IMG/VR virus record: IMGVR_UViG_3300022223_000001
Location: 4,805-68,804 of that record
Length of the DNA stretch: 64,000 bases
Direction: 5' to 3' (one strand)
Source: a virus
The notes under the pieces are model-generated. The model had not been told where the DNA came from. It saw only the letters and a program-made list of their open reading frames with translations, and made no database searches. The translations under genes were made by a program, and so were the position numbers. Within the stretch, counting starts at the first letter, position 1, and every line of letters begins with the position of its first letter. Below are positions 8,414 to 57,171 of the stretch, one piece after another.

Positions 8414-8610
8414 GGCGTCCACCTGCCCCGGCTGCCCCACTTCAGGACGATGTAGCGGATTTGCTCCCCGGTGGCATTCCGTCCGAGGTCGCGCAGCTGC
8501 AGGGCCATTGGCCGCCTCGGTGGCTTTGGTGGCTGCCAGCGCGGCGCCAGCGCGTAGACCAGCAGGCCGGCGCCGGTGATGGCGAGGGCGGCGAGCAGGG
8601 CGGCGGTCAC
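8410..8610 (-). CDS. Small membrane protein
   Basis: VTAALLAALAITGAGLLVYAL TM segment; GTGA coupling. Confidence 0.45.
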   Translation of the reverse strand: MTAALLAALAITGAGLLVYALAPRWQPPKPPRRPMALQLRDLGRNATGEQIRYIVLKWGSRGRWTP

Positions 8611-8978
8611 GGGCGGCCTCCCGGCCGGTCCGGTACCACCTCGACCGACCCGTCTCTGTAGTGATAGAGCGCGACGCCGTCGGGCATGTAGCGGTTGGTG
8701 CGCATCTCGATGTCGCCGCGTAGGTGTGCCAGTCCAGGCGTGGCAGCGGGGCCGGCGACGACCGCGATCGGGCCCTTCCACTGCCGCCGCGTGATTGCCA
8801 CCGGGCGGCGCATGCGTCGCAGTATTGCCTCGATATCCTTCCGTATGCTCTCGCAGCTGCCGCAGCGCTCGGGAGGGTCGAAGTCACAGGGCGCGTAGCC
8901 GAGCCGCGAGACCTTGCAGACATCCCGCACAGCCTGGTCGAGCACGGCGCGGGCGTCGTCGGTGAGGTTGAGGGTCAC
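8607..8978 (-). CDS. Hypothetical protein
   Basis: Coupled ORF starting VTLNLTDDAR, contains CGSC. Confidence 0.5.
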   Translation of the reverse strand: MTLNLTDDARAVLDQAVRDVCKVSRLGYAPCDFDPPERCGSCESIRKDIEAILRRMRRPVAITRRQWKGPIAVVAGPAATPGLAHLRGDIEMRTNRYMPDGVALYHYRDGSVEVVPDRPGGRP

Positions 8979-20107: not shown

Positions 20108-20124
20108 GTCTCGTTCTCCCTTTT

Positions 20125-35187: not shown

Positions 35188-35761
35188 CTCAGCCGCCGCA
35201 CGCAAGCTGTCGGTGGTGGACACCGAGAGGTCGGCCTCCACTGAGCGGGTGCCCTATCAAACTCCGGGGCGCGGCCACCATCGCACAACGCTCCAACTCT
35301 CGCGCGAGTCGAAGCGGGCGCGCGCACGCCACCGCAGCAGCGTCACCGCCGAAGAGCTGGCCGAGCTGGAGCGACTGCGGCCGCGCACCCGAGGCGATTG
35401 CGTTGATGGTCTCCGGCCATGTCCGTTCGCCGGCTGCCGCTATCACCTCTATCTCGACGTCGACGAGGACAAGCGCAGCCGTCGTGCTCCCGACGTGGTG
35501 AACATCAACATCCCTCGCCCCGATGTGCCCATCGAGCGCATGACCGAGAGCTGTGCGCTGGACGTCGCCGAGCGCGGGGGCGGCACGCTCGAAGATCTCG
35601 GTGTGATCTACGGTGTGAGTCGAGAGCGCATTCGACAGATTGAGGCCCATGCGCTCAAGCGCGTGCGGCTGCACGAGGGCGGTCGCCTCGAGGGTATGCA
35701 AGAGGCGCTGGACGAGCTCGAAGACGAGCGCAAGCGGCGATGCCAGGGAGGCGAGGGGTGA
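35180..35761 (+). CDS. Sigma70 region-4 HTH protein with Cys/His Zn motif (myxobacterial type)
   Basis: RPRTRGDC..G.RPCPF..C.YHLYLDV...ESCALDVAERGG.TLEDLG...GVSRERIRQIE..ALK. Confidence 0.8.
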   Translation: MGSSAAARKLSVVDTERSASTERVPYQTPGRGHHRTTLQLSRESKRARARHRSSVTAEELAELERLRPRTRGDCVDGLRPCPFAGCRYHLYLDVDEDKRSRRAPDVVNINIPRPDVPIERMTESCALDVAERGGGTLEDLGVIYGVSRERIRQIEAHALKRVRLHEGGRLEGMQEALDELEDERKRRCQGGEG

Positions 35762-36498
35762 AGCAGCAGTCACTCGATATGCTATGGCATGGCGATCAGC
35801 CGTGGTTTCGCCTCGACCAGGCAGACGCCGTCGAATGGTTGCTTTCGCTTCCGCCCGAGAGCGTTGATCTGTTCGTCACGGACCCGGCCTATGAGTCGCT
35901 CGAGAAGCATCGCAAGAATGGCACGACGACGCGCCTCGCGCACAGCAAAGCATCGAGCAACGACTGGTTCGACATTTTCCCGAACGAACGCTTCGAGCAG
36001 CTGCTACCGGCGATGCACCGGGCGTTGCGCCCCGACCGCCACTGCTACGTGATGTGCGACCAAGAGACGGGGTTCTACTTGGTCGAGCTGAACCGTCGCC
36101 TCGGCATCTTCACGTTCCACAAGGCGATCATCTGGGACAAGAAGCGCATCGGGATGGGCTACCACTACCGTGCCCGCCACGAGTGGATCCTCTTCTTCGA
36201 GAAGGGCAAGCGGAAGCTGAACGATCTCGGGGTGCCGGACGTGCTCGAGTTCGAGCGCGTGGTGGGTGGCTACCCGACCGAGAAGCCGGTGGGGCTGGTC
36301 GAGACTCTGATCAAGCAGAGCACCGCGGAGGGCGAGGTCGTGGTCGATCCGTTTGTGGGCTCGGGTTCCGCCGCGGAGGCTGCGTTGCGGTGTGCGCGCC
36401 GCTTCCATGGGTGTGACGTGAGCTATCAGGCGACGCAGCTTGCGGGGCAGCGTGTCTCGCGCTGGGTGCAGGGCGTGGCCCAGGGAGGCGAGAGGTAG
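35758..36498 (+). CDS. DNA methyltransferase, N6-A/N4-C beta class
   Basis: VTDPAY, GMGYHYR, YPTEKP, VDPFVGSGS. Confidence 0.9.
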   Translation: MKQQSLDMLWHGDQPWFRLDQADAVEWLLSLPPESVDLFVTDPAYESLEKHRKNGTTTRLAHSKASSNDWFDIFPNERFEQLLPAMHRALRPDRHCYVMCDQETGFYLVELNRRLGIFTFHKAIIWDKKRIGMGYHYRARHEWILFFEKGKRKLNDLGVPDVLEFERVVGGYPTEKPVGLVETLIKQSTAEGEVVVDPFVGSGSAAEAALRCARRFHGCDVSYQATQLAGQRVSRWVQGVAQGGER

Positions 36499-40614: not shown

Positions 40615-41886
40615 ATGAAGATCGGAGACTACGAGGTGCACGATGCTGCGAGGCTGTTCCCGTTGATGGTCGGGGCGGAGTTCGAGGCGCTGTGCGACAA
40701 CCTGCGCGATCAAGGCCTGCTTGAGGACATCGTGCTGGTGAAGACCGGCAAGTCCGAGAAGCTGCTCGACGGCCGCAACCGGCTGCGCGCGTGCGAGGCG
40801 ACGGGCATCGAGCCGCGCTTCACCCACTTCGAAGGCAAGGACCCCGTGGCCTACGTGGTGAGCCACAACCTACACCGAAGACACCTCGACGCATCGCAGC
40901 GCGCGATGGTCGCGGCGCGCATCAAGCCGCTGTTCGAGGCCGAGGCCGCGCAGCGCTTGCGCGAGGGCGGCGCCCGTGGCGGAAAGGCGTCCGGTTCGGC
41001 GCCCGGCAAGAATAAGCCTGTGGAAACATTGCCACAGGCTTCCGAGCGTCGCCCTCCAGCGCGCGACCAGGCGGCCCGCCTCGTCAACGTGAGCGGGCGC
41101 ACCGTGCAGAAGGCGCAGAAGGTGATCGAGTACGGCTCCAAGGAACTGGCGGCCGCCGTCGACGCTGGCGTCGTCAACGTCGAGCTGGCCGCCCAGATCG
41201 CCGACAAGCCGAAGGACGAGCAGAAGGAACTCGTGCGCAAGATCGCCGAGAGCCCGGGCAAGAACGCGCGTGCTGTGCTCCGGTCCCACGACCGCGACAC
41301 GGTCGTCGAGCAGATCGAAGCCGAGGCCGTCGAGATGCCCGAGGGCCCCTTCCGCGTGATCCTTGTCGACTTCCCCTGGGCCTACGCCAAGCGCGCCGGC
41401 GACGGCACCCAGCGCGGACAGACACTGTATCCCACGATGCAGCACGACGAGATCGTCGAGTTTGCGCGCGACAAGCTCGCCCCGCTGGCGCACGAGGACG
41501 CGGTGCTGTTTCTCTGCATCACCAACGCGCACCTGGTCCGAGGCGACCACGTCGCAGTGCTCGAGGCCTCCGGCTTCACCGGCAAGACGATGCTCTCGTG
41601 GGACAAGGAGCGCATGGGCACCGGTGACTGGCTGCGCGGGCAGACCGAGCACATCATCATGGCCACGCGCGGCCGCCCGATGGTGAAGCTCACCAACCAG
41701 AGCACCGTGCTGCCGATGATCTCGGAGAAGCGGCGCGAGCACAGCCGCAAGCCCGAGTCGCTCTACGGCTTCATCGAGGAGCTGTGCCCCGGCAACCGGG
41801 TGGAGCTGTTCTCGCGCACCGACCGCCCCGGCTGGACCGCGTGGGGCGCCGAGGCTGGGAGCTTCGAGGCGGAGCTGGGGTTGTGA
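40615..41886 (+). CDS. ParB-N fused to MT-A70-family adenine methyltransferase
   Basis: HDAARLFP...LLDGRNRLRAC...NLHRRHL (ParB-N); DFPW, MGTG.W.R..TEH, HSRKP, ELFSR (MT-A70). Confidence 0.9.
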   Translation: MKIGDYEVHDAARLFPLMVGAEFEALCDNLRDQGLLEDIVLVKTGKSEKLLDGRNRLRACEATGIEPRFTHFEGKDPVAYVVSHNLHRRHLDASQRAMVAARIKPLFEAEAAQRLREGGARGGKASGSAPGKNKPVETLPQASERRPPARDQAARLVNVSGRTVQKAQKVIEYGSKELAAAVDAGVVNVELAAQIADKPKDEQKELVRKIAESPGKNARAVLRSHDRDTVVEQIEAEAVEMPEGPFRVILVDFPWAYAKRAGDGTQRGQTLYPTMQHDEIVEFARDKLAPLAHEDAVLFLCITNAHLVRGDHVAVLEASGFTGKTMLSWDKERMGTGDWLRGQTEHIIMATRGRPMVKLTNQSTVLPMISEKRREHSRKPESLYGFIEELCPGNRVELFSRTDRPGWTAWGAEAGSFEAELGL

Positions 41887-42182
41887 TGGAAGCTCCCAAG
41901 CCAAACCTCGACTCTGCCGTTCAGGACCCGCCGCCGCGCCAGCCCGCCGGCCCCGGCATCCACCTGCGCAAGCCGCGCAACAACCAGGAGCAGCGCATGG
42001 TCGACAAGCTGCTGCGCGCGCTCCGCAACCGCGACAACGCGCTCAAGCAGCTGGCCCAGCTGAACCGGTCCGTGATGCGCCACCATGCGGCGCTGCGCGA
42101 TGCCGGGATGCTCGTGGGGCCGGCGCCGTCGATCGGTGAGGCGGAGGACGGAGAGGGGGTTTTGCCTCCCCCCCGCACGTAG
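41886..42182 (+). CDS. Hypothetical protein
   Basis: TGATG coupling; short coiled coil. Confidence 0.45.
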   Translation: MEAPKPNLDSAVQDPPPRQPAGPGIHLRKPRNNQEQRMVDKLLRALRNRDNALKQLAQLNRSVMRHHAALRDAGMLVGPAPSIGEAEDGEGVLPPPRT

Positions 42183-42183
42183 G

Positions 42184-42669
42184 ATGCCGCGAGCGAAGCC
42201 AAAATCGGCGCCGGGCCGCCCCACGAAGCTGACGTCGGCGCTGCGCAAGAAGTTCGTGCGGGCCGTCAAGTTCAACTACTTCGAGACGGCGGCGGCGCTC
42301 TGCGGCATCGACCCGAGGACCGCCAGGCGCTGGATGAAGCGCGGCTCCGACGAGCTCGAGCGCATCGAGGCGGGCGAGCCGCGCAGCAAGGAGAATGCGG
42401 CCTATGCGCTCTTCTGCGCCGAGGTGCGCGCGGCCGAGGCCAAGGGCGAGTCGGAGATGGTCCGGCGGCTGACGGCGCACGGCAAGGAGCACCCCTCCGC
42501 GGTGATGCAGTACCTCGAGCGCAAGTACCCGAAGCGCTGGGGCAACCGAGTGAAGATCGTGCAGGAGATCGAGGCTGAACTCGACGCGGTGTTCGCCAAG
42601 CTCGAGAAGCACCTGACGCCAGAGGAGTACGCCCGTGCCCTTGCGGCACTCGACGCGCCGGATAGTTAG
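42184..42669 (+). CDS. terS: Terminase small subunit
   Basis: GRPTKLT...AAALCGI...T.RRW...LER.YP..WG; directly precedes terL. Confidence 0.85.
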   Translation: MPRAKPKSAPGRPTKLTSALRKKFVRAVKFNYFETAAALCGIDPRTARRWMKRGSDELERIEAGEPRSKENAAYALFCAEVRAAEAKGESEMVRRLTAHGKEHPSAVMQYLERKYPKRWGNRVKIVQEIEAELDAVFAKLEKHLTPEEYARALAALDAPDS

Positions 42670-44221
42670 GCGCCGGCGTGACGCGATAGCCGGCACCCAG
42701 GCGCTCGACACCGCGGCCCTCGACGAGGAACGCGAGAGGTGCACGCAGAGCTTCGCCGCCTACATCAAGGCGGCGTGGCCGCACGTGGAGCCCAAGCGCC
42801 TGGTATGGGGATGGCACCACGACGCGATCGTGGACCACCTCGAGGCGGTCACGAGCGGCGACATCAAGTATCTGGTGATCAACGTGCCGCCCGGCAGCAC
42901 GAAGACGCTTTCGGTGCAGGTCTTTTGGCCAGCCTGGGAGTGGATCTGCGACCGGCACGCCCGGTCCGACGAGTTCCCCACCGGATTCCGGCCCGACATG
43001 AAGTACCTGTTCGCGACCTACGAGTCGGGCCTCGCGCGCCAAAAGTCGCTGCTGTGCCGCCAGCACATGGAAAGCGATTGGTACCAGTCGCTATTCGCGG
43101 GGCGGTGGCAGCCGAATCGAGCTCAGTGGGGCGTCGAGCTGTTTGGTAACCGCCAGGCCGGCTGGCGGCTCGCCACCAGCGTGGGAGGGCGCGCGACGGG
43201 CACGCACCCGAACCGCCAGATCGTGGACGACCCGACGAAGCCGCAGGACGTGCTGGCGGGCACGGGCAGCTCGACGAAAGTGGCGCTGGCGAACACCCAG
43301 ACCTGGTGGACCCAGACGATGACGACGCGCAAGGCGGACGCCAACACAGCGCGCATCGTGATCATGCAGCGCCTGCACGAGTCCGACCTCGCTGGCCACA
43401 TCATCAAGGAAGGCGACGCCGAGGTGCTGCGAATCCCGATGCACTTCGAGTCGAAGTTCCCATGCCGCACAGTGCTGCGGCGCGCGCCCAGCGGAGAGCC
43501 CGAGAAGACCTGGGAGGACCCGCGCGCCGACGAGGGGCAGCTCATGTGCCCGGAGCTTTTCGACGAGCAGGAGTGCGCCAAGCGCAAGAAGGGTCTCGGA
43601 CCGCAGGGCTATGCGGCGCAGGAGCAGCAGCGCCCGGCGCCGGCGGGCGGTGCGCTCTACAAGCAGCACTACTTCAAGCACTGGACGGCGCGCCCCATCG
43701 GCGGCGTGTGGATCATCGCCGGCGACTGCACGTTCAAGGCGCTCGACACCAGCGACTGGGTGGCGCTGCAGGTCTGGTGCGCGCAGGCGCCGCACTTCTA
43801 CCTGATCGACGAGATCCGGGAGCGCATGGGGGTGCTCGACACGTGCAAGGGGATTCTCACCCTCAAGAGCCGCTACCCGCAGGTGGGCGCGGTCTGCATC
43901 GAGGATGCCGCGAACGGGCCTGCGGTCGTGGAAATCATGAAAAAGCGGGTGCCCGGCATTCGGCTCGTGCCCACAGGTGGCGGCAAGTACGCCCGGGCGA
44001 ACGCCACGAGCGTCTACCACGCATCGGGCAACGTGTTCCTGCCGCCGCTCGAGCGTGCCCCGTGGGTCCAGGACTACATCGAGGAGCACCTGAGCTTTCC
44101 GGTGGGCGCCCACGATGACCGCGTCGATGCGCAGTCACACGCCATCGTCCACCTGTCCGAGGGCATGGCCGACTTCGAGAAGATGCTGGCGACGATGCGC
44201 GAGCTTGGTATCGAGCCGTAG
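42635..44221 (+). CDS. terL: Terminase large subunit
   Basis: INVPPGSTKT, IVDDP.K, IMQRLH..DL.G, IEDAANG, FP.GAHDD.VDA; GAGGAG RBS before GTG. Confidence 0.93.
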   Translation: MPLRHSTRRIVRRRRDAIAGTQALDTAALDEERERCTQSFAAYIKAAWPHVEPKRLVWGWHHDAIVDHLEAVTSGDIKYLVINVPPGSTKTLSVQVFWPAWEWICDRHARSDEFPTGFRPDMKYLFATYESGLARQKSLLCRQHMESDWYQSLFAGRWQPNRAQWGVELFGNRQAGWRLATSVGGRATGTHPNRQIVDDPTKPQDVLAGTGSSTKVALANTQTWWTQTMTTRKADANTARIVIMQRLHESDLAGHIIKEGDAEVLRIPMHFESKFPCRTVLRRAPSGEPEKTWEDPRADEGQLMCPELFDEQECAKRKKGLGPQGYAAQEQQRPAPAGGALYKQHYFKHWTARPIGGVWIIAGDCTFKALDTSDWVALQVWCAQAPHFYLIDEIRERMGVLDTCKGILTLKSRYPQVGAVCIEDAANGPAVVEIMKKRVPGIRLVPTGGGKYARANATSVYHASGNVFLPPLERAPWVQDYIEEHLSFPVGAHDDRVDAQSHAIVHLSEGMADFEKMLATMRELGIEP

Positions 44222-44261
44222 GGCGTGGCTCGGGCGAGGTCAGTTCAATCCGATTGTAGAT

Positions 44262-44287
44262 GGGGCCCGTTCACCGCGTCGTAGGAC
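44262..44287 (+). promoter_or_regulatory. Putative phage late promoter (portal)
   Basis: GGGGCCCGTTCA-N8-TAGGAC-N5-GTG; second box GAGGTCAGTTCA at 44236. Confidence 0.5.
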
Positions 44288-44292
44288 AAGGC

Positions 44293-45750
44293 GTGCTGCT
44301 GAATCTGCTCGATTCCGCCTTCTTGCGCCTCGACGGCTTCGCCAACGCGGTCACCGGGCTCGGCACTGAGACGCTCGACAAGACCATGTCGGCGCTGTTC
44401 CAGCGCGCCGTCCGTCGCCACGATTCCTACTACGAGAGCCTGTACGAGGAGGACCCCTTCGCGCGGAAGGTCTGCGAGAAGCTGCCCGAGGAGATGCTGC
44501 GCAACGGCTTCGACCTCTCGATGGGCGACGAGGAAGATGCGCTTGAGGTCGCCACAGCGGTGCGCGATGAACTCCGGCGGCTGAAGGCGACCGACCGCGT
44601 CAAGTCCGGCCTGGTCTGGGAGCGCGTGCTGGGCGGTTCGGCCGTCCTGATCGGCGTCGACGATGGCGCGAGCGACCCGTCCGAGCCCTTGCGCGAAGAG
44701 AGCATCAGGCGAGTGACCCACCTCAGCGTGGTGGACAAGCCGCGCATCTACGCAAAGACCTGGTACGCCTCCACGCACGAGCGTGCAGGCTGGCCGGAGC
44801 TCTACACGCTGACGCCGTTGGATGGTGGCAGCCCCGTCGATGTGCACGAGACCCGTCTGCTCGTGTTTTCCGGCGGGCGCGTGTCGCACGAGCGCAGGGT
44901 CGCGTTGCAGGGCTGGGGCCATTCGGTGCTCGCCTCGATGCACGAGGTCCTGAGCGACTACTCGATGAGCTGGCGTGGCATCGCGCACATGCTGCAGAGC
45001 GCCAACCAAGACGTCTGGTACATGAAAGACCTCCGTTCGGCGCTGACCAGCGGCACCGACGCTGCGAAAGCCTACTTCGCCGCGCGCTTCCAGCTGGCCC
45101 AGATGCGCCAGGGGCCGAACCGAGCAATCGCACTCGATTCGGACGGCGAGAAGTTCGAGCGCCATGGCTCCACGCTGACCGGCATTCCCGAGACGCTGCA
45201 GCAGATGAACCTGCGCCTGTCGGCCACGGCCGGGATGCCGGTAACCGTCCTATTCGGCATGTCCCCCGCAGGCATGAACGCCACCGGTGAGAGCGACCTG
45301 CAGATGTGGCACGGCAGCGTCAAGGCGCGCCAGCAGGACCAGGCGCAGCCGCACTTCGAGCGCTTGATTGACCTGCTGATGAAGTCCAAGGAAGGCCCGA
45401 CCAAGGGCAAGGTCATCGAAGGCTGGAGCCTGACGTGGCGCCCGCTGCTCGAGATGTCCGACGGTCAGCGCGTCGAGCTGCGGCTCAAGCAGGCGCAGGC
45501 GGACAAGGCGTATATCGACGCCCAGGTGCTGCTGCCCGAGGAGGTCGCCCGTAGCCGCTTCCGGCCGGAGGGCTACAGCATCGAGACCGGCATCGACTTC
45601 GAGGCGCGCGAAGACATCCTCGAGGCGGAGCGGCAGGAGCGCCTCGAGGCAGAGGCGCGGGCCAAGCTCGCATTCCAACAGGCGGGGCAGGGCGATCCCG
45701 AGGATCCCGACGCTGAGGACGAAGACGACCCGCCGCCGGATGACGAGTAG
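44293..45750 (+). CDS. Portal protein (DUF1073 type)
   Basis: RLDG..N..TGLG, ERVLGG, VHETRL, GWG.SVL, GMPVT.LFGMSP.G.NATGESD. Confidence 0.9.
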   Translation: MLLNLLDSAFLRLDGFANAVTGLGTETLDKTMSALFQRAVRRHDSYYESLYEEDPFARKVCEKLPEEMLRNGFDLSMGDEEDALEVATAVRDELRRLKATDRVKSGLVWERVLGGSAVLIGVDDGASDPSEPLREESIRRVTHLSVVDKPRIYAKTWYASTHERAGWPELYTLTPLDGGSPVDVHETRLLVFSGGRVSHERRVALQGWGHSVLASMHEVLSDYSMSWRGIAHMLQSANQDVWYMKDLRSALTSGTDAAKAYFAARFQLAQMRQGPNRAIALDSDGEKFERHGSTLTGIPETLQQMNLRLSATAGMPVTVLFGMSPAGMNATGESDLQMWHGSVKARQQDQAQPHFERLIDLLMKSKEGPTKGKVIEGWSLTWRPLLEMSDGQRVELRLKQAQADKAYIDAQVLLPEEVARSRFRPEGYSIETGIDFEAREDILEAERQERLEAEARAKLAFQQAGQGDPEDPDAEDEDDPPPDDE

Positions 45751-45755
45751 CCGCC

Positions 45756-48700
45756 GTGCCCACGGCTGACCAGATTGCGCAGCTGCGGGTCCGCCGGCTG
45801 GTCTCGGAGGCGGCTGGGCGGCGGGTGAGGCCGCAGGCCAACATCGCGCCCCAGCGTGAGCCTCGCGCTATCCGGATGCGCTACCTGGTGGCTCTGCGCG
45901 GCATCGTCGCGGACATCCAGCGGGCGACCAAGGCGGCGGTCGTCGACAAGCTGCCGGAGCTGTTCGCCCTGCTTCCAGCCGAGCTGAGGCTCGACGCTCC
46001 CCCGGACGATGGCGCGCGCGGACTCATGCTGGAGCTGCGCTCCGACGTCGACGGCATCCTGTCGGACAAGCCGCTGATGACGCTTTCCGAGCGCATCGCC
46101 CGGGACGTGTCGACCTTCAACCGCTCCGAGTTCAGCAAGCAGATGAAGATTGCGATCGGCATCGACCCCTTCGTTGCCGACGCGAACCTGTCCTCCTACG
46201 TCGACGGTTTCGTCGCGGAAAACGTCGCGCTGATCAAGAGCATCGGCTCAGAGCAGCTCGGACGGGTCGAGGGAATCGTGATGCGAGCGCTGCGAAACGG
46301 CACTCGCGTCGAGACCGTGCGCAAGGAGATCCAGCAGAGCTTCGGCCTGTCGAGGAAGCGCGCAGAGCTCATCGCCACCGACCAGGTGAGCAAGCTCAAC
46401 GGGCAGCTCACGCGCTCGCGACAGCAGCAGGTCGGCATCGAGAAGTACCGATGGAGCACCAGCCGCGACGAGCGTGTCCGCCGTCGTCACCGCGAACTCG
46501 AAGGGACCGTCCACAGCTGGAGCCGGCCGCCGGTGGTGGACGCGAAGACGGGACGAAGGGAGCACCCAGGCGGCGACTTTCGCTGCCGATGCGAGGCGAT
46601 TCCGGTGGTCGACGACCTGCTCGAGCAGCTGGGAATCGTGCCGCCGAGCCGACCCTCCCGGCCCGCTCCGAAGCCCGTCAAACGACCGGCGAAGACTGCG
46701 CCGGCGGCACCCGTCCCGTCCGCAGCGTCGCCGAAAGCGCCGCCCGCAACGACACCATCACCGGCTCCCCTGTCGGTGCAGGCCGCGGCGAAACTGCAGC
46801 AAGCGCGGGTCATCGAAGCTGCCAAGCAGGCGCAGGCGGCAGCGGACGCGGCCGCGCTTGAGAAGGCCCGGGCCGCGGTGGTCGTGCAGGCGGAGGCCAA
46901 GCAGGCGGCGCTCGACAAGGTCGCTACGGCGCAGGCCAAGGCCGCAGCCTACAAGGCCGAACTCGATGCGCAGAAGAAGGTGAAGGCTGCAGCAGAAAAG
47001 CAGGCCGCTGTCGAAGCCGCGGCGGCATCGCACAAAACAGCGTTCGAGGCGCTCGCTACGCACGGTGCCGACCCGGAGGTCGCGTTGAAGGCGCTCCTTG
47101 GCATTGCGCAGAAGGAGCCGGAGGCATTCGCGCAGCTCTACAATCTGATCATCAAAGGCGGGAAGGGGCTGTCACCGAAGTACCTGAAGAACCTGCCGAA
47201 ATCGAAGGGCAAGGACGCCAAAAAGATCCTAACCAAGCTTGGGTTCGAGCTCGCACCTCCGAAGCCGAAGTGGGACAAGCCTTATCCGCCCATCGAGCCG
47301 GCTCCGCTACAGCAGTTTTCCTTCCAGGTGGTCGACGGCAGCGGATTCCAGTGGCACGACGTCTACAGCGCGGATGGACAGACCAAGTTCGCGTTCATCA
47401 AGCGGATCGGCGACGAATGGGTGGTCGACCCGCCGGCGGACCTGAAGGCGAAGGGGTGGGACAAGCTGACGTGGCAGGGGACCGACGAGGGAAAGTCCTT
47501 CGCCGTCTCCTACGCGATCGATGTCTCGGAAGCGATCAAGGCCTCCAAGCTGGCGCCCGCGAAGTCTGCGGGGGCGGCGGCATTCACGCCCGCGCCCAAG
47601 GCCATTGGCTGGAGCGGCAAATGGAAGGGGCGGCGCGACGTGAAGGTCGGCGCCGATCCGGCGAAGGATCTTGCGAAGCGGTTCCGGGATGGGCGAAGCG
47701 GTACCGCCGTTGCGGGCGATGGAGAGTGGATCGAGGACTTCAATATCCAGATTCAGCAAGAAATCGTGGACGGTCGGCCCGAGTTCGTCGCGAGGTTCAA
47801 GGTCAACGAACACAAGGGCGCATCCTTTCGGAAGGCGATGGAGACTGCAGGCGGGCGCCCTGCCGCCTTCCAGTTCTCCGGCCTCGATTCGCTCGGCAGT
47901 GAACGGCTGGTGAAGGACCTGTCGAAGCTTCAGGACGCGCCGGGCTCGCACCAGGGACTGCGCGCCGTGGATGTGGAGGGCGCGCTCGTCGAGTTTCAAC
48001 GGGGGGTTGCGCGAGGAAGTCAGGTCTCTGCCATGCACAACGCTGTCGAGGTGCGGCTGCCGATGCCGGACGACCTTCAGGAGGGCTATCGCCACTTCGC
48101 TCGCGTGATGCAAAAGCTGGGTGTGGACGTCACGAAAGGGCCTAACAAACGGGCGATCGACACATGGAAGAAGGCGAAGCTGATGTCGGTCACAGAGGGC
48201 GCGCGCGAGGATCTCGCGGCGCTGAGGTCCCGGGGCCCGCTGAAGGTGAACGAACTGTGGGAACGGCACGCCACCCCCGAGCTGCGGGAGCTGCTGGAGG
48301 ACGTGCAGCTGCGCGAGGTGTCTCCGGGCAAGGTGGCGCCCTACAGTCCCAAGCTGGCTCAGCAGCTCAAGGACAGCGGCGCGACCCATCTGGTGCATCA
48401 CAGCAGCGCCGACGCGGTGGAGCTGCTGGAACAGGTCCTGGTCAAGGACGGCCAGAATGCGCTCCTGTCTAGCCGAGAGCGCTACAACCGGGGCCTATTC
48501 TTCCGCGGCATGTCCACTTCAACGGACTTCGAGACAGGAGGGGCCGACAGCGTTTTCACCAGGATGCGGCGTGGCGCGCCTGAAGCCAGCGCTGGCGTGC
48601 AGTTTGAAATCGACCCGGGCGAGCTGGGGCGCCTGGACGCCTACATGTTCAACAGCGATGAGTTCGGCCGAACGGGGCCGGACCACGTGCGGCGCCGCGA

Positions 48701-48920
48701 GACTCTACGTGGTATGATCGATCTCGCGGGGGGCAGTTCCCGCTCGCTATCCAGTAGCAACGAAATAATGTTCCGACACAGCATTCCGGTCAGCTCAGTG
48801 CGCCGCATTCAGGTGCCGAGCGGTGCGCGAGCCCGCGTGCTGCAGATGCTCGATGATGCCGGGGTCGAGCAGGTCAACGGGATCCCGGTATCGGACTTCA
48901 TACAGTCGGGCTCCTACTGA
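45756..48920 (+). CDS. MuF/SPP1 gp7 minor head protein with long extension ending in an ADP-ribosyltransferase-like toxin domain
   Basis: RA.LIA.DQ..K, Y.WSTS.DERVR..H..L.G....W, HPG.D..CRC (MuF); P/A/K linker; C-terminal H...LLS...SVFTR...NEIMF...IP. Confidence 0.85.
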   Translation: MPTADQIAQLRVRRLVSEAAGRRVRPQANIAPQREPRAIRMRYLVALRGIVADIQRATKAAVVDKLPELFALLPAELRLDAPPDDGARGLMLELRSDVDGILSDKPLMTLSERIARDVSTFNRSEFSKQMKIAIGIDPFVADANLSSYVDGFVAENVALIKSIGSEQLGRVEGIVMRALRNGTRVETVRKEIQQSFGLSRKRAELIATDQVSKLNGQLTRSRQQQVGIEKYRWSTSRDERVRRRHRELEGTVHSWSRPPVVDAKTGRREHPGGDFRCRCEAIPVVDDLLEQLGIVPPSRPSRPAPKPVKRPAKTAPAAPVPSAASPKAPPATTPSPAPLSVQAAAKLQQARVIEAAKQAQAAADAAALEKARAAVVVQAEAKQAALDKVATAQAKAAAYKAELDAQKKVKAAAEKQAAVEAAAASHKTAFEALATHGADPEVALKALLGIAQKEPEAFAQLYNLIIKGGKGLSPKYLKNLPKSKGKDAKKILTKLGFELAPPKPKWDKPYPPIEPAPLQQFSFQVVDGSGFQWHDVYSADGQTKFAFIKRIGDEWVVDPPADLKAKGWDKLTWQGTDEGKSFAVSYAIDVSEAIKASKLAPAKSAGAAAFTPAPKAIGWSGKWKGRRDVKVGADPAKDLAKRFRDGRSGTAVAGDGEWIEDFNIQIQQEIVDGRPEFVARFKVNEHKGASFRKAMETAGGRPAAFQFSGLDSLGSERLVKDLSKLQDAPGSHQGLRAVDVEGALVEFQRGVARGSQVSAMHNAVEVRLPMPDDLQEGYRHFARVMQKLGVDVTKGPNKRAIDTWKKAKLMSVTEGAREDLAALRSRGPLKVNELWERHATPELRELLEDVQLREVSPGKVAPYSPKLAQQLKDSGATHLVHHSSADAVELLEQVLVKDGQNALLSSRERYNRGLFFRGMSTSTDFETGGADSVFTRMRRGAPEASAGVQFEIDPGELGRLDAYMFNSDEFGRTGPDHVRRRETLRGMIDLAGGSSRSLSSSNEIMFRHSIPVSSVRRIQVPSGARARVLQMLDDAGVEQVNGIPVSDFIQSGSY

Positions 48921-49246
48921 TGTTTGATTGGCCCGAGGCGGTGGTGATCGACGCGCCCAATGGGGCGGCCCTGGCTGGTTTGCGTCCGCGGTACATGGCG
49001 GACGACGAGACGCAGACGCAGGTACTGGAGTGGCACGAGGGCGGGCATGTGCGAATCCGGGAGCTCGCCCGCGTGGTCGAAGACACGCCCGAGCGCTTCG
49101 TGGCAGAGACCACCAGCGGGGAGCTCTGGACGATCGAGAAGATGACGCTCGAGCGCTATCGCGAGCGGGTGCGGGAGCACACCGTCGGGAAGCCGGACTT
49201 CGAGACCGAGGCCGAGATGCTCGAGGCGATGCGAAGGGAGTGGTGA
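48920..49246 (+). CDS. Putative immunity protein of the MuF toxin
   Basis: 108-aa acidic ORF with TGATG overlaps on both sides. Confidence 0.55.
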   Translation: MFDWPEAVVIDAPNGAALAGLRPRYMADDETQTQVLEWHEGGHVRIRELARVVEDTPERFVAETTSGELWTIEKMTLERYRERVREHTVGKPDFETEAEMLEAMRREW

Positions 49247-49818
49247 TGCAGAGAGACCGTGGGGACTTATGGGATTGGCACGATGCCGGCTACCGGATCG
49301 TCGTCAGCACAAACATCGGGTACTGCCCGAAGACGTTCAGGAACAACATGGGGGCGGGCATCGCGTGGCAGGCAGCGCGCCGCTACCCGGGGCTGCCCGA
49401 TTGGTACGGCCGCCAGTGTGCGGAGCGCGGAGCCGAAACGCCGGTGCTTGAGCGCGAGGACTTGCGGCTGGTCTTCTTCCCGGTCAAGCCGTTTCGCCCG
49501 GAGGATCCCGAGCGCGGCTGGGCACAGAATGCGAGCCTCGATCTGATCGCGGACCGCGCGCGCCAGCTGGGAGTGATTGCGACAGCTGGGGCACCAATCG
49601 CGATGAGCACCGTCGGAGCTGGTCCGAAGGGGAGCGGAGGCGGCCTTGACCCGCGAGAGGTCGAGGAACTCCTGCAGCGTGAACTCGGCGAGTCGAGCGA
49701 AAGGGTTGTGCTTGTCGAGTACGACCCGCAAGCAAGCCGTGTGATTCCGGCGCTCGCAATCTCGGCTCCGGGTCGAACACGTGGCGCCAAGCCGCGCCGC
49801 GTTGCTGCGCGTCGTTGA
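49246..49818 (+). CDS. Macrodomain protein (DarG/TARG1-like ADP-ribosyl hydrolase)
   Basis: GDLW, VV..N, MGAGIA..A..RYP, FPVK...W...A.L..I, IAM..VG.G..GGL....V..LL. Confidence 0.8.
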   Translation: MQRDRGDLWDWHDAGYRIVVSTNIGYCPKTFRNNMGAGIAWQAARRYPGLPDWYGRQCAERGAETPVLEREDLRLVFFPVKPFRPEDPERGWAQNASLDLIADRARQLGVIATAGAPIAMSTVGAGPKGSGGGLDPREVEELLQRELGESSERVVLVEYDPQASRVIPALAISAPGRTRGAKPRRVAARR

Positions 49819-49843
49819 CTGAGCGTCATACGCGGTCAATAGT
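49815..49843 (+). promoter_or_regulatory. Sigma70-like leaderless promoter for the Tat-signal gene
   Basis: TTGACT-N17-AATAGT-N6-ATG(49850); TTGAC...GTCAA inverted repeat. Confidence 0.5.
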
Positions 49844-49849
49844 CGCTTC

Positions 49850-50416
49850 ATGCAGCTGAGCCGCCGCCGCTTCCTCACCAGCCTCGGGGCCGGCGCTGCC
49901 GCTGGCCTGGTGTCGCTCGCAGCCCCCGCCCCGGTACGCCGCTTCTGGCAGGTGCCGCGCGGGGCGCCGGTGAAGGGGCCAAGCGACCTCGACTGGTACG
50001 CGGTGGTGGGAGACGACGGGCGCATCGTGGCCTCGCCAGATGGCGTGAGGTGGATGGCCACCGGCATCGACGACGAGCGCGTGCGGCCGGGGCACGGCGC
50101 ACTCGATGGCTCGCCGCCGAAGTGGGGCGCGATGCCGCCGGGGCCATCCGCTCTTGTGACCGGCCACGTGCGCGTTGCCCAGCCAAGCGCGGAGGAAATC
50201 GCGCGGAAGTTGGCGATGGAGATCAGCCACGCGGTACGCGACCGGCTGGGCGATTTCCTCGGCGCTGCCCCCCTGAACTTCTCCGACAGCGACGAGGTGA
50301 AGCGGCAAGTGCTCGCTGAGCTCTACGACCGCTTGCCGCCCGTTCAGCCAAGCATCAAGGCCAGCGCCCGCGGCCGGCTGGTCGACATCAGCGTCGACTT
50401 CGACGTGACCGTCTAG
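49850..50416 (+). CDS. Twin-arginine (Tat) signal protein
   Basis: MQLSRRRFLTSLGAGAAAGLVSLAA. Confidence 0.65.
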   Translation: MQLSRRRFLTSLGAGAAAGLVSLAAPAPVRRFWQVPRGAPVKGPSDLDWYAVVGDDGRIVASPDGVRWMATGIDDERVRPGHGALDGSPPKWGAMPPGPSALVTGHVRVAQPSAEEIARKLAMEISHAVRDRLGDFLGAAPLNFSDSDEVKRQVLAELYDRLPPVQPSIKASARGRLVDISVDFDVTV

Positions 50417-50462: not shown

Positions 50463-51998
50463 ATGACGCCGTCGGCGCAGGAAGGTCACCAGCGATTCGA
50501 CTTTGCCCAGATCGGCCAGGTCGAGGTGCTGCCCTCCGGCGCGCTCCGGATCCCGGCCACGCTCGGCCGGGTCGGCGTCCTCGAGTACCGCCGCGGCGGC
50601 CAGGTGGTGCGCGAGCTGCGGCCGCCCGACGAAGTGTTCAGGGCCGACTCGGTGGCGACGTATTCGGGCGCCTTCGCGACCGACCTGCACCCGCCCCGCG
50701 ACAAGGCCTGGATCACCACCAAGAACTGGAAGGACTGGGCGGTCGGCTACGTCAGCGACGGCGTGCGGCAGGACGGCAACCACCTGCGGGGCACCCTCAT
50801 CGTCCACGACGAGAAGATGATCGGGCTGATCCAGGGCGGCGAGCGCCGAGAGCTGTCGCCCGGCTACATCTGCCTGAAGCTCGACGAGACGCCGGGCAAG
50901 TTCAACGCCGCCACCGGCGACTACGGGCCCGATGTGGCCGAGGGCCAGCCCTACGACGTGGTGCAGCGCAGCATCGTCTACAACTCGGTGGGCATCGGCC
51001 CCCGGGGATGGGGCCGGCAGGGCAGCGAAGTTGCGCTGCGACTCGACGGCGCCGACGACGATGCAGACCTGGGCGTCCTGCGCCTGGACGGCACGGCGCT
51101 CGGCGACTTCCTCAGCTCGCGGATGCGTCAGCTCAATAAGTCGCTCGCGGACCTGGCCGCGGAGACCGGAATCCTCGCGCCCAAGCAGCCCGAGGATCAG
51201 CCGCTACTGCGCAGCGGGCCGCGCCCCAACCGCACGTACATCCTCGAAGCGATCCTCGACGGCTGGACCGACCGGCCGAGCGACGCGCAGCTCAAGGCGC
51301 TCGCCAAGGCGCTCGAGGTCGACCTCGACGAACTCATCAAGCTCATCCCCGACGAGCTCCAAAAGCTCGACGGCGGTGTCACCCCCGAACCCAAGCAAGA
51401 GAGCACGACGATGGAAATGATCGAAATCCGCCTGGACGGCCTCACGGTCTCGGTGCCCAAGCAGGCGGCCGAGATCATCAACAAGGCGATCGACGAGCGC
51501 GACTCGAAGATCAAGGCGCTCACCGACGCCGGCAGCGAGAGCAAGGCGCGGCTGGACGGACTGACCGAGCAGCTCGGCGCCGCCGAGATGCTGCTCGAGG
51601 AGTTGCCCGGCCAGCTGCGCGGAGAACTCGCCGCGCGCAGCAAGCTCGAGGACCAGGCGCACTCGGTCCTGGGCAACGACCCCGACGGTCGCCCCGTCAA
51701 CCTGGACGGCAAGAGCGACCGCAAGGTCCGCGAGATGGTGCTCGCCGCCATCGCGCAGAAGGCCGGCGGCACCGAGCTGAAGCTCGACGGCGAGGACGAC
51801 ACCTACGTGCGCGTCCGCTTCGACGTGGCGATGGAGAATTTCAAGGCGCCCGACGCCAGCGCAAAGGCCCGTGAGGCCGCGCTCGGCGGCACCAGCCCGA
51901 AGGTGCGCCAGGACGCTGGCAACGGTCCCGACCCGGTGGCCGCCCGCAACGCGATGATCGAGAAGCGCTCGAACGCCTGGAAGGGCCAGCCCAACTGA
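50463..51998 (+). CDS. Prohead protease/scaffold (DUF2213) with inserted XRE-HTH
   Basis: GRVGVLEY...ELRPPDEVF..DS, T.LHP, RELSPGY, YN.V.I..RG..G.EV.LRLD; HTH insertion; coiled-coil scaffold. Confidence 0.88.
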   Translation: MTPSAQEGHQRFDFAQIGQVEVLPSGALRIPATLGRVGVLEYRRGGQVVRELRPPDEVFRADSVATYSGAFATDLHPPRDKAWITTKNWKDWAVGYVSDGVRQDGNHLRGTLIVHDEKMIGLIQGGERRELSPGYICLKLDETPGKFNAATGDYGPDVAEGQPYDVVQRSIVYNSVGIGPRGWGRQGSEVALRLDGADDDADLGVLRLDGTALGDFLSSRMRQLNKSLADLAAETGILAPKQPEDQPLLRSGPRPNRTYILEAILDGWTDRPSDAQLKALAKALEVDLDELIKLIPDELQKLDGGVTPEPKQESTTMEMIEIRLDGLTVSVPKQAAEIINKAIDERDSKIKALTDAGSESKARLDGLTEQLGAAEMLLEELPGQLRGELAARSKLEDQAHSVLGNDPDGRPVNLDGKSDRKVREMVLAAIAQKAGGTELKLDGEDDTYVRVRFDVAMENFKAPDASAKAREAALGGTSPKVRQDAGNGPDPVAARNAMIEKRSNAWKGQPN

Positions 51999-52935: not shown

Positions 52936-53940
52936 ATGAACTTCTTCGACATCGATTTCTCGACGCTCTCGCCGGCGCAGAGGCTGCAACTGGGCGCGGT
53001 CGCCAACGGGATGAACCTCGACGCCAACGAGACGGCGCTTCTCGAGCGGCAGCTGCGGCACATGGAGGCGCAGCTGTACGAGGTCGAGTACCCGGAGCTG
53101 CGCCACACGCGCTACATCCCGCAGGACACCTCGACGCCCGTTGGCGCCGAGTCGATCCTGTACCGGGTGATGGATCAGGTCCGAGCGGCCGCGCTCATCA
53201 CCGACTACGCGAACGACCTCCCGAACGTCGACGTGATCCTCAAGGAGTACCCGATCCCGATCAAGGGCTACGGCAACCACTACAAGTACTCCCTGCGCGA
53301 CCTGCAGCACGCAGCCTTCAGCGGTCAGCCGATCGACACGCTGCGCGCCCAGACCGCGCGCGACTCCATCGAACAGTCGCTCGACGAGGTCGCCTGCCTT
53401 GGCGAGCCGAGCGTGGGCATCAAGGGCTTCATCAACAACGACGCGGTGGACATCCTGACCGCCGCGACGGTCGGCGGTGACGTCACGTGGGCCGACAAGA
53501 TCAATGGCACCGGTGGTGCTGCGGCGGTGATCGCGGACATCTCGGAAATGCGGAACCACATGATCGTCGACACCGAGCAGCTCTACCGGCCCAACGCCTA
53601 CCTGCTTCCGACGGCGCTCTTCGAACTCATCAACACCACGCCGTTCAGCGCCAGCGGCGGCAGCGACCGGACCATCCTGGAGTGGTTCCGGCAGAACAAT
53701 CCCGGCGTCAGCATCGAAGGCTGGTGGAGGTTGGACAACGCCAACGCAGCGGGCACCGGCGGGCGCATCGTCGCCTACTTCCGTGACCCGCGCATCCTGG
53801 TCGAGAAGGCCGTGATGCCCTTCAATCAGCTGCCTCCGCAGGCCAAGTCGCTGGCCTTCATCATCAACTGCTGGGCGCTGACCGGCGGCACGCACATCTA
53901 CCGCCCAAAGGGCGTGGTCTTCATGGACGGCGCCAACTGA
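52936..53940 (+). CDS. Major capsid protein (DUF2184 type)
   Basis: RQL...E...YE..YP, DY.NDLP.VD, Y.YS..DL, GE....I.G.IN, TGG..IYRP. Confidence 0.9.
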   Translation: MNFFDIDFSTLSPAQRLQLGAVANGMNLDANETALLERQLRHMEAQLYEVEYPELRHTRYIPQDTSTPVGAESILYRVMDQVRAAALITDYANDLPNVDVILKEYPIPIKGYGNHYKYSLRDLQHAAFSGQPIDTLRAQTARDSIEQSLDEVACLGEPSVGIKGFINNDAVDILTAATVGGDVTWADKINGTGGAAAVIADISEMRNHMIVDTEQLYRPNAYLLPTALFELINTTPFSASGGSDRTILEWFRQNNPGVSIEGWWRLDNANAAGTGGRIVAYFRDPRILVEKAVMPFNQLPPQAKSLAFIINCWALTGGTHIYRPKGVVFMDGAN

Positions 53941-55246: not shown

Positions 55247-55834
55247 GTGGCAACGCCGATGGATTGGACGCCGGTGTGGAACGGTATTCGCGACTGGGTG
55301 GTGGCGGTGACGGGCCTGCAGGCGAGCGACGTCAACTGGCGCGACTGGCCGCAGAAGTTTGCCGGCCCAACGCAGGTGCGGCTGAACCCGCTCGCGGCGC
55401 CGATGGTCGACACCGAGCTGTCCTACAGCGACACCGGCACCGACCTCGAGGCGGCGCAGGAGGGGCTCACGCTGCTCACGGTCTCGATCGCCGTGCGCAG
55501 CCGCAGCCAGGACCCGGCCAAGTTCGGCCTGCGCGAGGCGAAGCTCCTCGAGGCCGCCATCGTCGATACCGAGGAGCTGGTCGCGCTCGAAGCGCTGTGC
55601 GTCTACCCGGCCCGGGTGGCGCGCGGCGTGCAGATCGGCGCCTACGAGTGGGACGGACGCATGGAGCAGCTGTGCACGCTCGACATCGAGTTCGCGGTGT
55701 CGACCACCCAGGCGATGGGGCCCGTCGGGTGGTTCGACCATGTCGAGGTCAGTTCAGACACGAGCAACGTAGACGGGTCGCCGCTACCGGCTGAACTGCA
55801 GCTCTCGAAAAAGCAGGTTGGACCGCCGCCATGA
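55247..55834 (+). CDS. Tail terminator
   Basis: Position before sheath; size and composition. Confidence 0.65.
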   Translation: MATPMDWTPVWNGIRDWVVAVTGLQASDVNWRDWPQKFAGPTQVRLNPLAAPMVDTELSYSDTGTDLEAAQEGLTLLTVSIAVRSRSQDPAKFGLREAKLLEAAIVDTEELVALEALCVYPARVARGVQIGAYEWDGRMEQLCTLDIEFAVSTTQAMGPVGWFDHVEVSSDTSNVDGSPLPAELQLSKKQVGPPP

Positions 55835-57171
55835 GCCTCGACTCCATCGTCTCCGTAACCATCGACAAGGTCGACGCGAGCCTCGAGCGCACGGCCTTCG
55901 ATGCGGTCCTGATCGCCGGCTACCACACGGTCTGGGTAGGGCCCGAGAAGACGCGGTTCTACAGCGCCTCCGGTGGCCTGGCCGCGATGGTCACCGACGG
56001 CTTCCTGGCGACCGACCCGATCTACCTGTGCGCGCAGGCCTTCCTCGCGGCCAATCCGCACGTCAGCGGCTTCAAGATCGGCAAGCTGGACTCGGCGCCA
56101 AGCTGGACCGGGCAGATCACGCCGGTCAACGTCACCGAGGGCTTCGTCTACGACTTCGACGTCATCTCGCATGCCGGGGTGAGCACCAACATCACCTACA
56201 CGAATGGGGCCGCCGAGACCGTCGCCACGGTCGTTGACGCACTGGTCGCTGCGATCACCGCCATCACCGCCATCACCGCAGCCGACGACATCACCCATGC
56301 CACGGTGACCACCGACGGCGTGGGTGAGCTGGCGGCCATCGTGAGCACGCACTCTCGCGCCGACCTCAAGGTGGAGAACCTGACCGCCGACCCCGGTCTG
56401 GCGACCGACCTCACGGCCATCGAGGCGGCCGACGACGCATGGTACGGCCTGCTGCTGGCCTCCAACAGCCCGGCCGAGGTGCTGGCGGCCATGGCCTGGG
56501 CGGAGAGCCGCACGAAGCTGCTGGGCACCACAGCGAGCGACAGCGAGTGCAAGGACGCTGCGGTCACCGACGACGTGATCAGCACCTCGCAGACCAACAG
56601 CTACTTCCGTAGCTGGATCCAGTTCTGCGAGAACGACCTCGACTACGCCGCCGCCACGCTGATGGGCGAGGAGTTTCCGTTCCAGCCCGGCTCGCGCACC
56701 TGGGAGTACAAGACGCTTCCGGGCGTCGCGGTCTCTCCGCTTACCGCGGCCGAGGTCGCCGCGCTCATCGGCAAGAACGCCGTCATCTACGTCACGGTCG
56801 CCGGCCGCAACGTCACCCGCAACGCCAAGACCCCGGGCGGCGAGTGGATCGACGTCACGCACGGCATCGATGAGATGCACGCGCGGATGCAGGAGGACGT
56901 CTTCGGCGTGCTCGTGTCCAACGGCAAGGTCCCCTACACCAAGGCCGGCGTCGCCCTGGTGGTCAATCCGGTGCAGGGCGTGCTGGACGCGCGCGCCGAC
57001 GAGTCGATCGGCTTCATCGCCAAAGACCCCGCGCCGGTCGCCAGCGGTCCGGACCCGAAGACCGTCAGCGCCGCGGACAAGGCCGTTCGCAAGCTCCCGA
57101 ACGTCAACTTCAGCTGCACGCTCGCCGGCGCCATCCACGCCGTCAACATCAACGGCAAGGTCTCGGTGTAA
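55831..57171 (+). CDS. Contractile tail sheath (DUF3383)
   Basis: IVSV.I, WYG, PGS.TW.YKTL.GV, GEWIDV..G.D, KVPYT..G, LAGAIH.V.I.G. Confidence 0.9.
   Translation: MSLDSIVSVTIDKVDASLERTAFDAVLIAGYHTVWVGPEKTRFYSASGGLAAMVTDGFLATDPIYLCAQAFLAANPHVSGFKIGKLDSAPSWTGQITPVNVTEGFVYDFDVISHAGVSTNITYTNGAAETVATVVDALVAAITAITAITAADDITHATVTTDGVGELAAIVSTHSRADLKVENLTADPGLATDLTAIEAADDAWYGLLLASNSPAEVLAAMAWAESRTKLLGTTASDSECKDAAVTDDVISTSQTNSYFRSWIQFCENDLDYAAATLMGEEFPFQPGSRTWEYKTLPGVAVSPLTAAEVAALIGKNAVIYVTVAGRNVTRNAKTPGGEWIDVTHGIDEMHARMQEDVFGVLVSNGKVPYTKAGVALVVNPVQGVLDARADESIGFIAKDPAPVASGPDPKTVSAADKAVRKLPNVNFSCTLAGAIHAVNINGKVSV

Follow-up and report, generated by a model that had tools for sequence, protein, structure and literature searches.

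A phage MuF head protein that ends in a DarT-like ADP-ribosyltransferase domain, its conserved small partner gene and a lineage-specific DarG-type macrodomain gene

Enzymes of the DarT type, the ADP-ribosyltransferases (ARTs) of DarTG systems, are otherwise bacterial weapons against phage DNA, and DarG-type macrodomains are described as reversing the thymidine marks of the DarT2 type (PMC11825919, PMC11833690). Means of countering DarTG have been reported: gp104 of phage phiKZ, named AdfM, clears phage DNA of the marks set by DarT2 (Morgan et al. 2026, PMC13309987), orphan phage NADARs (AdfN) counter DarTG1 (PMC11825919), and the binder AdfB is a related case (PMC11481870). Among MuF toxin genes, 89% are given as being followed by an open reading frame (ORF) of under 150 amino acids (aa) (PMC5576092). 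Fusions of MuF to an ART that precede an immunity ORF are known already, as are, since 2026, phage DarG-type erasers. The sequence analysed here (the window) is a stretch of 64,000 nucleotides comprising bases 4805 to 68804 of the 68,804-bp IMG/VR virus record IMGVR_UViG_3300022223_000001. Its minor head protein joins a MuF domain to a C-terminal ART domain with a DarT-like fold, and is followed by genes for a 108-aa acidic protein, here called D1, and for a macrodomain protein. The arrangement is read here, with a probability of about 60%, as a MuF polymorphic-toxin module that consists of two genes, has an ART of a new type and has gained an AdfM-like macrodomain gene.

A sequence-only reading of the window had proposed a minor head protein of 1054 aa with a MuF domain, and the ORF and the profile libraries agreed with this. 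Pfam Phage_Mu_F (PF04233) matched aa 172 to 282 (E value, 3.4e-18; 66.8 bits against a cut-off of 29.6), TIGR01641 matched with an E value of 1.2e-17 (64.3 bits; cut-off, 39.65), and head morphogenesis families of PHROG matched aa 14 to 290 (phrog_324 E value, 1.4e-67). For the C-terminal domain, no naming or meaningful match was obtained in Pfam, PHROGs, PADLOC or NCBIfam, and neither ADPrib_exo_Tox nor ART-PolyVal was among the Pfam matches listed for it at E values of ≤1. When aa 850 to 1054 were searched against 1.84 billion representatives, 1046 cluster representatives matched at E values of ≤1e-3, 267 at ≤1e-10 and 25 at ≤1e-30, in proteins ranging from 120 to more than 2600 aa. Most of the 62 family matches scanned with Pfam had no family assignment; two had a sub-threshold match to DarT and two a match to MuF. 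Pfam DarT (PF14487) was the only recurrent weak sequence match, found in 6 of 22 short family members at E values of ≤1 (best E value, 2.3e-4), and the best family member scored 21.4 bits, under the gathering score of 22.5. Using the family profile, nothing was found among PDB sequences at E values of ≤10, and a single-sequence PDB search with aa 460 to 1054 returned chance-level rows only. An AlphaFold2 model of the ART domain, built from an 80-sequence alignment, had a predicted local distance difference test score (pLDDT) of 94.6 and a predicted template modelling score of 0.90. Foldseek placed Escherichia coli DarT1 (8baq) first, followed by SopF and more DarT entries, and in structure comparison the Z score of DarT exceeded that of any ART directed at protein or RNA by approximately 3 to 5 units. 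The solved DarT structures were thus the closest known fold to aa 850 to 1054, in line with the DarT-like ART that the sequence-only reading had placed at this C terminus.

To compare the family with bona fide DarT genes, 20 of the latter were gathered from genomes of the phylum holding the nearest prophage relatives and aligned to it by hhalign (39% probability with an E value of 3e-4 over 69 columns, or 22% over 36 columns). Both alignments paired NEIMF..IPVSSVRRIQV with AEFLI..VPWTCVTEIAV, and E1003 was therefore matched to the catalytic Glu of DarT, reproducing the motif parallel claimed earlier; the motifs quoted with that claim, HLVHH, ADSVFTR and SNEIMFRHSIPVSSVRRIQV, were all found in the translation. 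The conserved core of the domain consists of H881, R909, S920, D924, GGAD at positions 928 to 931, F934, R959, D961, D968, G971, R981, N1002 and E1003. Counted over 80 aligned family sequences, E1003, R959, D961, G971 and R981 were each kept in 80/80, N1002 in 78/80, R909 in 77/77, S920 in 75/77, D924 and F934 each in 78/78, and H881 in 65/76. In the model, strand 1 carries H881, strand 2 is followed by a helix that contains R909, the long strand thereafter holds F934, and a late strand begins with E1003; for DarT, a layout of His, loop Arg, Tyr/Ser position and Glu is described (PMC11543638, PMC11281641). A domain with an ART fold but no catalysis, serving the head only in structure or binding and accompanied by D1 and the macrodomain as unrelated morons, would accommodate the replacement of H881 in 11 of 76 aligned members and the absence of the Q of the DarT Q-x-E motif. 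It is nevertheless very improbable, as E1003, R909, F934, R959, D961 and R981 are invariant over 77 to 80 diverged sequences, which is typical of an active site, and the tight linkage to D1 would be hard to explain for a harmless domain. We conclude that this C terminus is a DarT-clade ART that looks active and forms a family of its own rather than a member of Pfam DarT.

A pattern scan identified the ART in 70 IMG/VR loci and 32 bacterial-genome loci. The nearest bacterial matches were in metagenome-assembled genomes (MAGs) labelled Polyangiaceae, Myxococcales, Haliangiales and 'delta proteobacterium', and such Myxococcota-like relatives fit the 67% G+C of the window; further matches came from Saccharibacteria, Clostridia, Chlamydiae and Verrucomicrobia. 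In a tblastn search of 50,697 GenBank phage records, one weak match was found, to the head morphogenesis protein of Pseudanabaena phage Pan1 (E value, 1e-4). The proteins that carry the ART were either MuF fusions or very large polyvalent-type proteins with an ADPrib_exo_Tox ART, NUDIX, pentapeptide repeats or InPase. Giant proteins of the polyvalent type were located at L076:2-5596, L057:2-5614, L042:2-5272 and L060:2-4459; a second, Alt/VIP2-type ART (ADPrib_exo_Tox) was present in L076, L057 and L042, NUDIX in L076 and L060, and pentapeptide repeats in L076. Loci L095 to L108, from Chlamydiae, Verrucomicrobia and other MAG chromosomes, encode proteins of approximately 700 aa that end in the ART, with a tandem pair in L097; such proteins may belong to the cell, as effectors, and not to a phage.

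The product of the second gene was confirmed as acidic (pI 4.74; 24 Asp/Glu against 14 Lys/Arg). A word-based search identified only two homologues of D1, and its family was assembled by jackhmmer over ORFs located 3′ of the ART and then with a hidden Markov model (HMM) from a 33-sequence alignment. Relatives were present in 53 of the 70 viral and 15 of the 32 genome ART loci, so that the family stands beside the ART in 68 further loci and the suggested tight link between the 108-aa protein and this ART type was upheld. Many of the surveyed loci are close relatives; when ART sequences were collapsed at 50% identity, D1 was present in 26 of 43 clusters. Most homologues begin 0 to 24 nt past the ART ORF on the same strand, and the HMM search found none in six macrodomain-seeded loci. 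Clades without D1 carry other small ORFs at this position, such as groups of 90, 123/129 and 198 aa, the Chlamydiae/Verrucomicrobia clade excepted. The pairing of ART and D1 was kept both where the next gene encodes an XkdF-type head protease and where it encodes a family-A DNA polymerase. Given that D1 is retained in head- and replication-module contexts alike, it tracks the ART and not the head module.

D1 could not be assigned to any known family: PHROGs, PADLOC and NCBIfam gave nothing meaningful, PDB gave chance-level rows, the protein Atlas gave no named neighbor, and hhalign found D1 unrelated to DarG (0.2%). Its structure model (pLDDT 96) shows six strands and then two helices, a small beta-sandwich plus helices, and the family alignment contains no invariant residue, as would be expected of a binder rather than an enzyme. 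From the strict gene adjacency, D1 most likely confers immunity to its cognate ART or inhibits it, in the manner that Jamet et al. (PMC5576092) argued for MuF toxins. D1 could also be an assembly chaperone or packaging adaptor, were the packaged ART to serve in an Alt-like host takeover by modifying proteins or RNA (RNA polymerase, translation factors or a defense protein). Where the target of a packaged phage ART is known, as for T4 Alt and for the Alt/VIP2- and N4-type fusions to MuF, it is described as a protein (PMC9503650, PMC5512222), the ART domain is near neutral (pI 6.6) rather than basic as a DNA binder might be, and the same ART occurs in polyvalent proteins beside the second Alt/VIP2-type ART and NUDIX. 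However, the lead of DarT in Z units over protein- and RNA-directed ARTs and the presence of D1 after the ART in replication modules, which ties it to the ART and not to head assembly, make such a takeover rather doubtful. The chromosomal ARTs of Chlamydiae and Verrucomicrobia also count against it, as their lack of D1 fits an immunity protein that is dispensable if the target lies outside the producer. This lack also suggests that they may be effectors directed at targets beyond the producing cell.

The macrodomain protein carries MGAGIA, FPVK and GGGL, which are invariant or nearly so across its 23 homologues. N23 and K81 are invariant among all 24 sequences, K81 aligning to the invariant FPTK of DarG, for which the catalytic Lys is given as K80 (PMC11543638). 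A variable loop lies between TNIG and NNMGAG in this family. Pfam had no match to the protein, PADLOC DarG (E value, 1.8e-4) and NCBIfam DarG (E value, 6.5e-4) matched weakly, and NF048014, the equivalog for full-length DarG, scored 19.1 bits against a cut-off of 250. The 24-member profile matched 5m3i (E value, 2e-5), 5m31 and 5m3e (3.8e-3) and TARG1/OARD1 entries (∼0.025) in the PDB. We take 5m3i and 5m31 to be the DarG macrodomains of Mycobacterium tuberculosis and Thermus aquaticus. Against 20 DarGs adjoining DarTs, hhalign gave 97.1% (E value, 6.6e-11; 117 columns), with MGAGIA, FPVK and GGGL paired to MGRGIA, FPTK and GLGGL of DarG, and the family HMM matched the DarG beside DarT in 20/20 loci. 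The DarG/TARG1 signatures reported by the sequence-only reading were thus present, with PADLOC, NCBIfam, the PDB profile search and hhalign in agreement. The comparison with phiKZ gp104 gave 96.6% by hhalign (E value, 6e-10; 111 columns; FPxK lysine aligned) and 25% identity by BLASTP (E value, 5e-6), and by these sequence measures the macrodomain is as close to AdfM as to DarG. DarG has approximately 350 aa and the window protein stops shortly past its macrodomain; the toxin-binding half of DarG is therefore absent. Among the GenBank phages the macrodomain matched four records, weakly, and DarT was found in 34 of 401 genomes searched of the phylum holding the nearest prophage relatives. The G+C content at third codon positions was 0.74 in the macrodomain gene and 0.82 to 0.93 in the surrounding head genes, as would fit a gene acquired later. 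An antisense ORF of 266 aa (49267 to 50067) overlaps the macrodomain gene; its G+C at second codon positions, 0.60, is atypical, and it is probably spurious and the plus-strand genes real.

The TGATG overlaps described by the sequence-only reading were confirmed at the MuF/D1 and the D1/macrodomain junctions, the A being common to the stop codon and the next start codon. A reading of the three genes as one obligatory cassette was not supported. Within 4 kb 3′ of the ART, a macrodomain was found, besides the window, only in L009/L010 (identical) and L011, where the order ART-D1-macrodomain recurs. Among 50 ART-carrying viral records searched whole, a macrodomain occurred anywhere in three, all in the clade of the window, and NADAR in none; six of the eight ART records that were at least 90% complete had neither a DarG-type macrodomain nor NADAR. 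The three comprise the two loci just named and the L007 record, in which the macrodomain lies approximately 8.4 kb from the ART. A neighbor-joining tree of 86 distinct ART domains (Biopython, without support values) grouped the four macrodomain-linked ARTs in one clade, beside prophages of Myxococcota MAGs. Five further viral records with a macrodomain homologue, one of them complete, show no ART, and the homologues without an ART adjoin genes for primase/helicase, single-stranded DNA-binding protein, UvsX-like recombinase or DNA polymerase; one follows a MuF-like protein. The conserved functional unit is therefore the ART plus D1, and the evidence points to a two-gene core with the macrodomain as a lineage-specific addition whose family also works without the ART.

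The same records bear on whether the three genes could be an integrated system, an inverted and virion-borne DarTG in which the packaged ART marks DNA, D1 blocks the ART in the producer and the macrodomain is dedicated to erasing that mark, so that the genome of the phage itself stays clean. Translational coupling of all three genes by the TGATG overlaps, the repetition of their order in L009/L010 and L011, the 66,654-bp contig listed for both nearest protein homologues, P0002 and P0164, the grouping of the four macrodomain-linked ARTs in one clade and the published activity of DarG-type macrodomains on DarT2-type thymidine marks (PMC11825919, PMC11833690) would all be in keeping with it. It appears rather unlikely, however, in view of the scarcity of the macrodomain (3/50 records) and of NADAR (0/50), the six of eight near-complete records with neither, the fourth clade member with its macrodomain ∼8.4 kb away, and the five macrodomain records without an ART match.

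Several observations weigh against the two-gene toxin reading or parts of it. The ART domain of the window matched Pfam DarT with an E value of 0.11 (12.6 bits; cut-off, 22.5), the hhalign probabilities of 22 to 39% are low and cover the C-terminal third only, and the Gln of DarT Q-x-E is not conserved, with Ser, Gly or Thr in its place and x-N-E in the ART family. H881, R909 and F934 may correspond to the His, the NAD-binding-loop Arg (R51 in DarT2, R52 in DarT1) and the Tyr of DarT, by secondary-structure order in the model and not residue-level superposition. The next structural neighbors after DarT were SopF and CopC/OspC3, which act on protein, and Tpt1, which acts on RNA, so that the substrate of the ART may also be protein or RNA. 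D1 gave no hit in 17 of the 70 viral and 17 of the 32 genome loci (5 of the genome loci without D1 end ≤2 nt after the ART ORF); these include all 12 ART loci of the Chlamydiae/Verrucomicrobia clade. The D1 survey was also partly circular because 30 of the surveyed loci contributed to the profile, and binding between D1 and the ART is a prediction from synteny. Finally, the macrodomain stays beside ART-D1 in three of the four clade members, for which an accessory macrodomain offers shared descent as the only explanation.

If the two-gene toxin reading is correct, the fusion protein would most likely be a late product of which a few copies are packaged and then enter the next cell together with the genome, because the place of MuF proteins is at the portal and they exit the capsid along with the DNA. 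Portal-side packaging and entry with DNA find their basis in what is described for MuF/SPP1 gp7 and Alt-type packaged ARTs (PMC5512222, PMC9503650, PMC5576092). Once delivered, the ART would modify, with NAD+, a macromolecule of the host or of a competitor; by analogy with DarT, the leading candidate is single-stranded DNA, at roughly even odds, and protein and RNA targets remain real alternatives. By binding to the ART, D1 would keep it inactive in the producing cell and shield the replicating DNA of the phage itself. The macrodomain would most likely strip DarT2-type ADP-ribose from phage DNA as a counter-defense against host DarTG, an alternative raised in the sequence-only reading and one with a direct precedent in AdfM (PMC13309987). 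A further role in removing marks that the phage ART itself has set is conceivable. It is distinctly unlikely that the locus acts as a virion-borne inverted DarTG in the full sense, with an injected DarT-clade DNA-base ART stalling replication of the host chromosome, resident prophages or co-infecting phages, and with the phage shielded by D1 during assembly and by the eraser after entry.

Between the MuF and ART domains, the fusion protein has a linker and a middle region. As remarked in the sequence-only reading, the linker is rich in Pro, Ala and Lys (24% Ala, 11.2% Pro and 12.4% Lys over aa 291 to 540; pI 9.8). The only PDB match of the full-length family profile, uL11m, fell inside this low-complexity linker and was taken as spurious. 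From approximately aa 620 to 650 up to aa 849, the middle region is conserved together with the ART domain, with D655, E660 and K682 conserved in 21 homologues, and many loci match query residues ∼645 to 1050. Twenty full-length homologues share the entire C-terminal half, aa 540 to 1054, with 28 to 49% identity over the aligned part. No match to the middle region was found among the family libraries, PDB or the protein Atlas; possible roles are regulation, substrate binding or a second catalytic activity. The MuF-ART homologues P0009, P0010, P0015, P0019 and P0020 contain an extra insert with the kinase-like motifs GSNxGG, YVKFY, ANWD and DN..RIDNGG (alignment columns ∼860 to 1100). The insert had no Pfam match and is reminiscent of the kinases of polyvalent proteins described in PMC5512222. 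In viral locus L013, an intein that contains an HNH endonuclease splits the MuF-ART gene (1343 to 4645; Intein_splicing E value, 2.9e-15, with weak Hint_2 and HNH matches).

The record has direct terminal repeats and a completeness rating of 100%, and PHROG matches across the window identified its source as a temperate myovirus with ParB-like genes and a standard head module. The MuF gene sits in the packaging module, in the order small terminase, large terminase, portal, MuF, and, further on, protease and major head protein (Table 1). The 188-aa ORF has an N-terminal signal resembling those of twin-arginine translocation (Pfam TAT_signal E value, 7e-4, below cut-off) and is not kept in related loci. 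At least four DNA methyltransferase-like genes, one with a ParB-like N terminus, and a separate ParB-like protein suggest heavy investment against restriction systems. The tetranucleotide CTAG was strongly depleted in the phage genome (observed/expected, 0.25). Avoidance of the DarT2 target motif TNTC was considered and rejected, the observed/expected ratio being 0.89 to 1.05.

Table 1. Features of the window discussed in the text, in window coordinates
Feature	Coordinates	Strand	Basis or remark
Methyltransferase-like/ParB-like gene	7181-8923	-	PHROG
Methyltransferase-like/ParB-like gene	11751-12728	-	PHROG
Integrase	12798-14375	-	PHROG
Methyltransferase-like/ParB-like gene	18368-20245	-	PHROG
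Methyltransferase-like/ParB-like gene	35740-36495	+	PHROG
Methyltransferase-like/ParB-like gene	40615-41883	+	PHROG
Small terminase	42085-42669	+	
Large terminase	42635-44221	+	
Portal	44260-45750	+	
MuF fusion protein (minor head protein), 1054 aa	45756-48920	+	Directly after portal; Pfam, TIGR01641, PHROG
MuF/SPP1 gp7-like head domain, aa 14-290	45795-46625	+	PHROG aa 14-290, Pfam aa 172-282
Ala/Pro/Lys-rich linker, aa 291-540	46626-47375	+	Composition
Middle region, no recognised fold, aa 541-849	47376-48302	+	Conservation
DarT-like ADP-ribosyltransferase domain, aa 850-1054	48303-48917	+	
D1, 108-aa acidic protein, putative immunity protein	48920-49246	+	Downstream partner of ART domain
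DarG/TARG1-type (AdfM-like) macrodomain protein, 190 aa	49246-49818	+	
ORF, 188 aa	49850-50416	+	Between macrodomain gene and head protease
Head maturation protease	50463-51998	+	
Major head protein	52936-53940	+	
Tail sheath	55831-57168		PHROG; tape measure protein also matched

In the literature searched, no MuF-DarT-like fusion or other DarT-clade ART family on virion proteins, no MuF/macrodomain cassette and no D1 partner was found; the supplements of PMC9503650, PMC5512222 and PMC5576092 lie outside that search and could name the family otherwise. The nearest relatives of the DarT fold found here form a large unnamed family (the 1046 cluster representatives) that ends phage MuF and polyvalent proteins and is accompanied by a small partner gene. 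If the ART is active on nucleic acid, phages would use DNA or RNA ADP-ribosylation offensively at entry, and D1 would add a new fold to the immunity proteins or inhibitors of DarT-like enzymes. The locus sets a writer beside its putative binder and an eraser of the DarG type, a natural case in which the specificity of each is directly testable.

Compared with known systems, the window ART shares 7 to 15% sequence identity with DarT1 and DarT2 of DarTG (PF14487; PDB 8baq, 7omv, 7omu and 7yk3) and has its own motifs, GxS[TS]xxDxxTGGADxVFTR and RxD...DxxG...R. DarT stands alone and is host-borne, whereas the window ART is phage-borne and its family is fused to MuF or polyvalent virion proteins; the partner of DarT is DarG or NADAR, whereas the conserved partner here is D1. 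The macrodomain protein shares the core of DarG and human TARG1 (MGxGIA, FPxK and GxGxGGL) but lacks the ∼200-aa C-terminal DarT-binding domain of DarG. In this it resembles AdfM, likewise a short stand-alone DarG-type phage macrodomain without a C-terminal toxin-binding domain, although AdfM belongs to another phage group and context and the gene for the window macrodomain is in the head module and coupled to those for the ART and D1. Very large virion-type proteins that end in this ART family recall the polyvalent proteins of Iyer et al. (2017, PMC5512222), whose ART is described there as H-Y-D, of the Tox-ART-HYD2 clade, whereas the window ART has an invariant strand-5 Glu and a DarT-like fold. 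The MuF-ART fusions described so far (EFV toxin; Alt/VIP2 and N4 types, Iyer et al. 2022, PMC9503650) differ in the same respect, the window ART being of the DarT clade and not R-S-E (Alt/VIP2) or H-Y-D (polyvalent/N4 type). The MuF polymorphic toxins of Jamet et al. (2017, PMC5576092), as presented there, are alike in the MuF domain encoded by the portal gene, the C-terminal toxin-type domain, the downstream ORF of less than 150 aa and the temperate phage background; in the window, the hosts are Myxococcota-like and not Firmicutes, and a macrodomain gene has been added.

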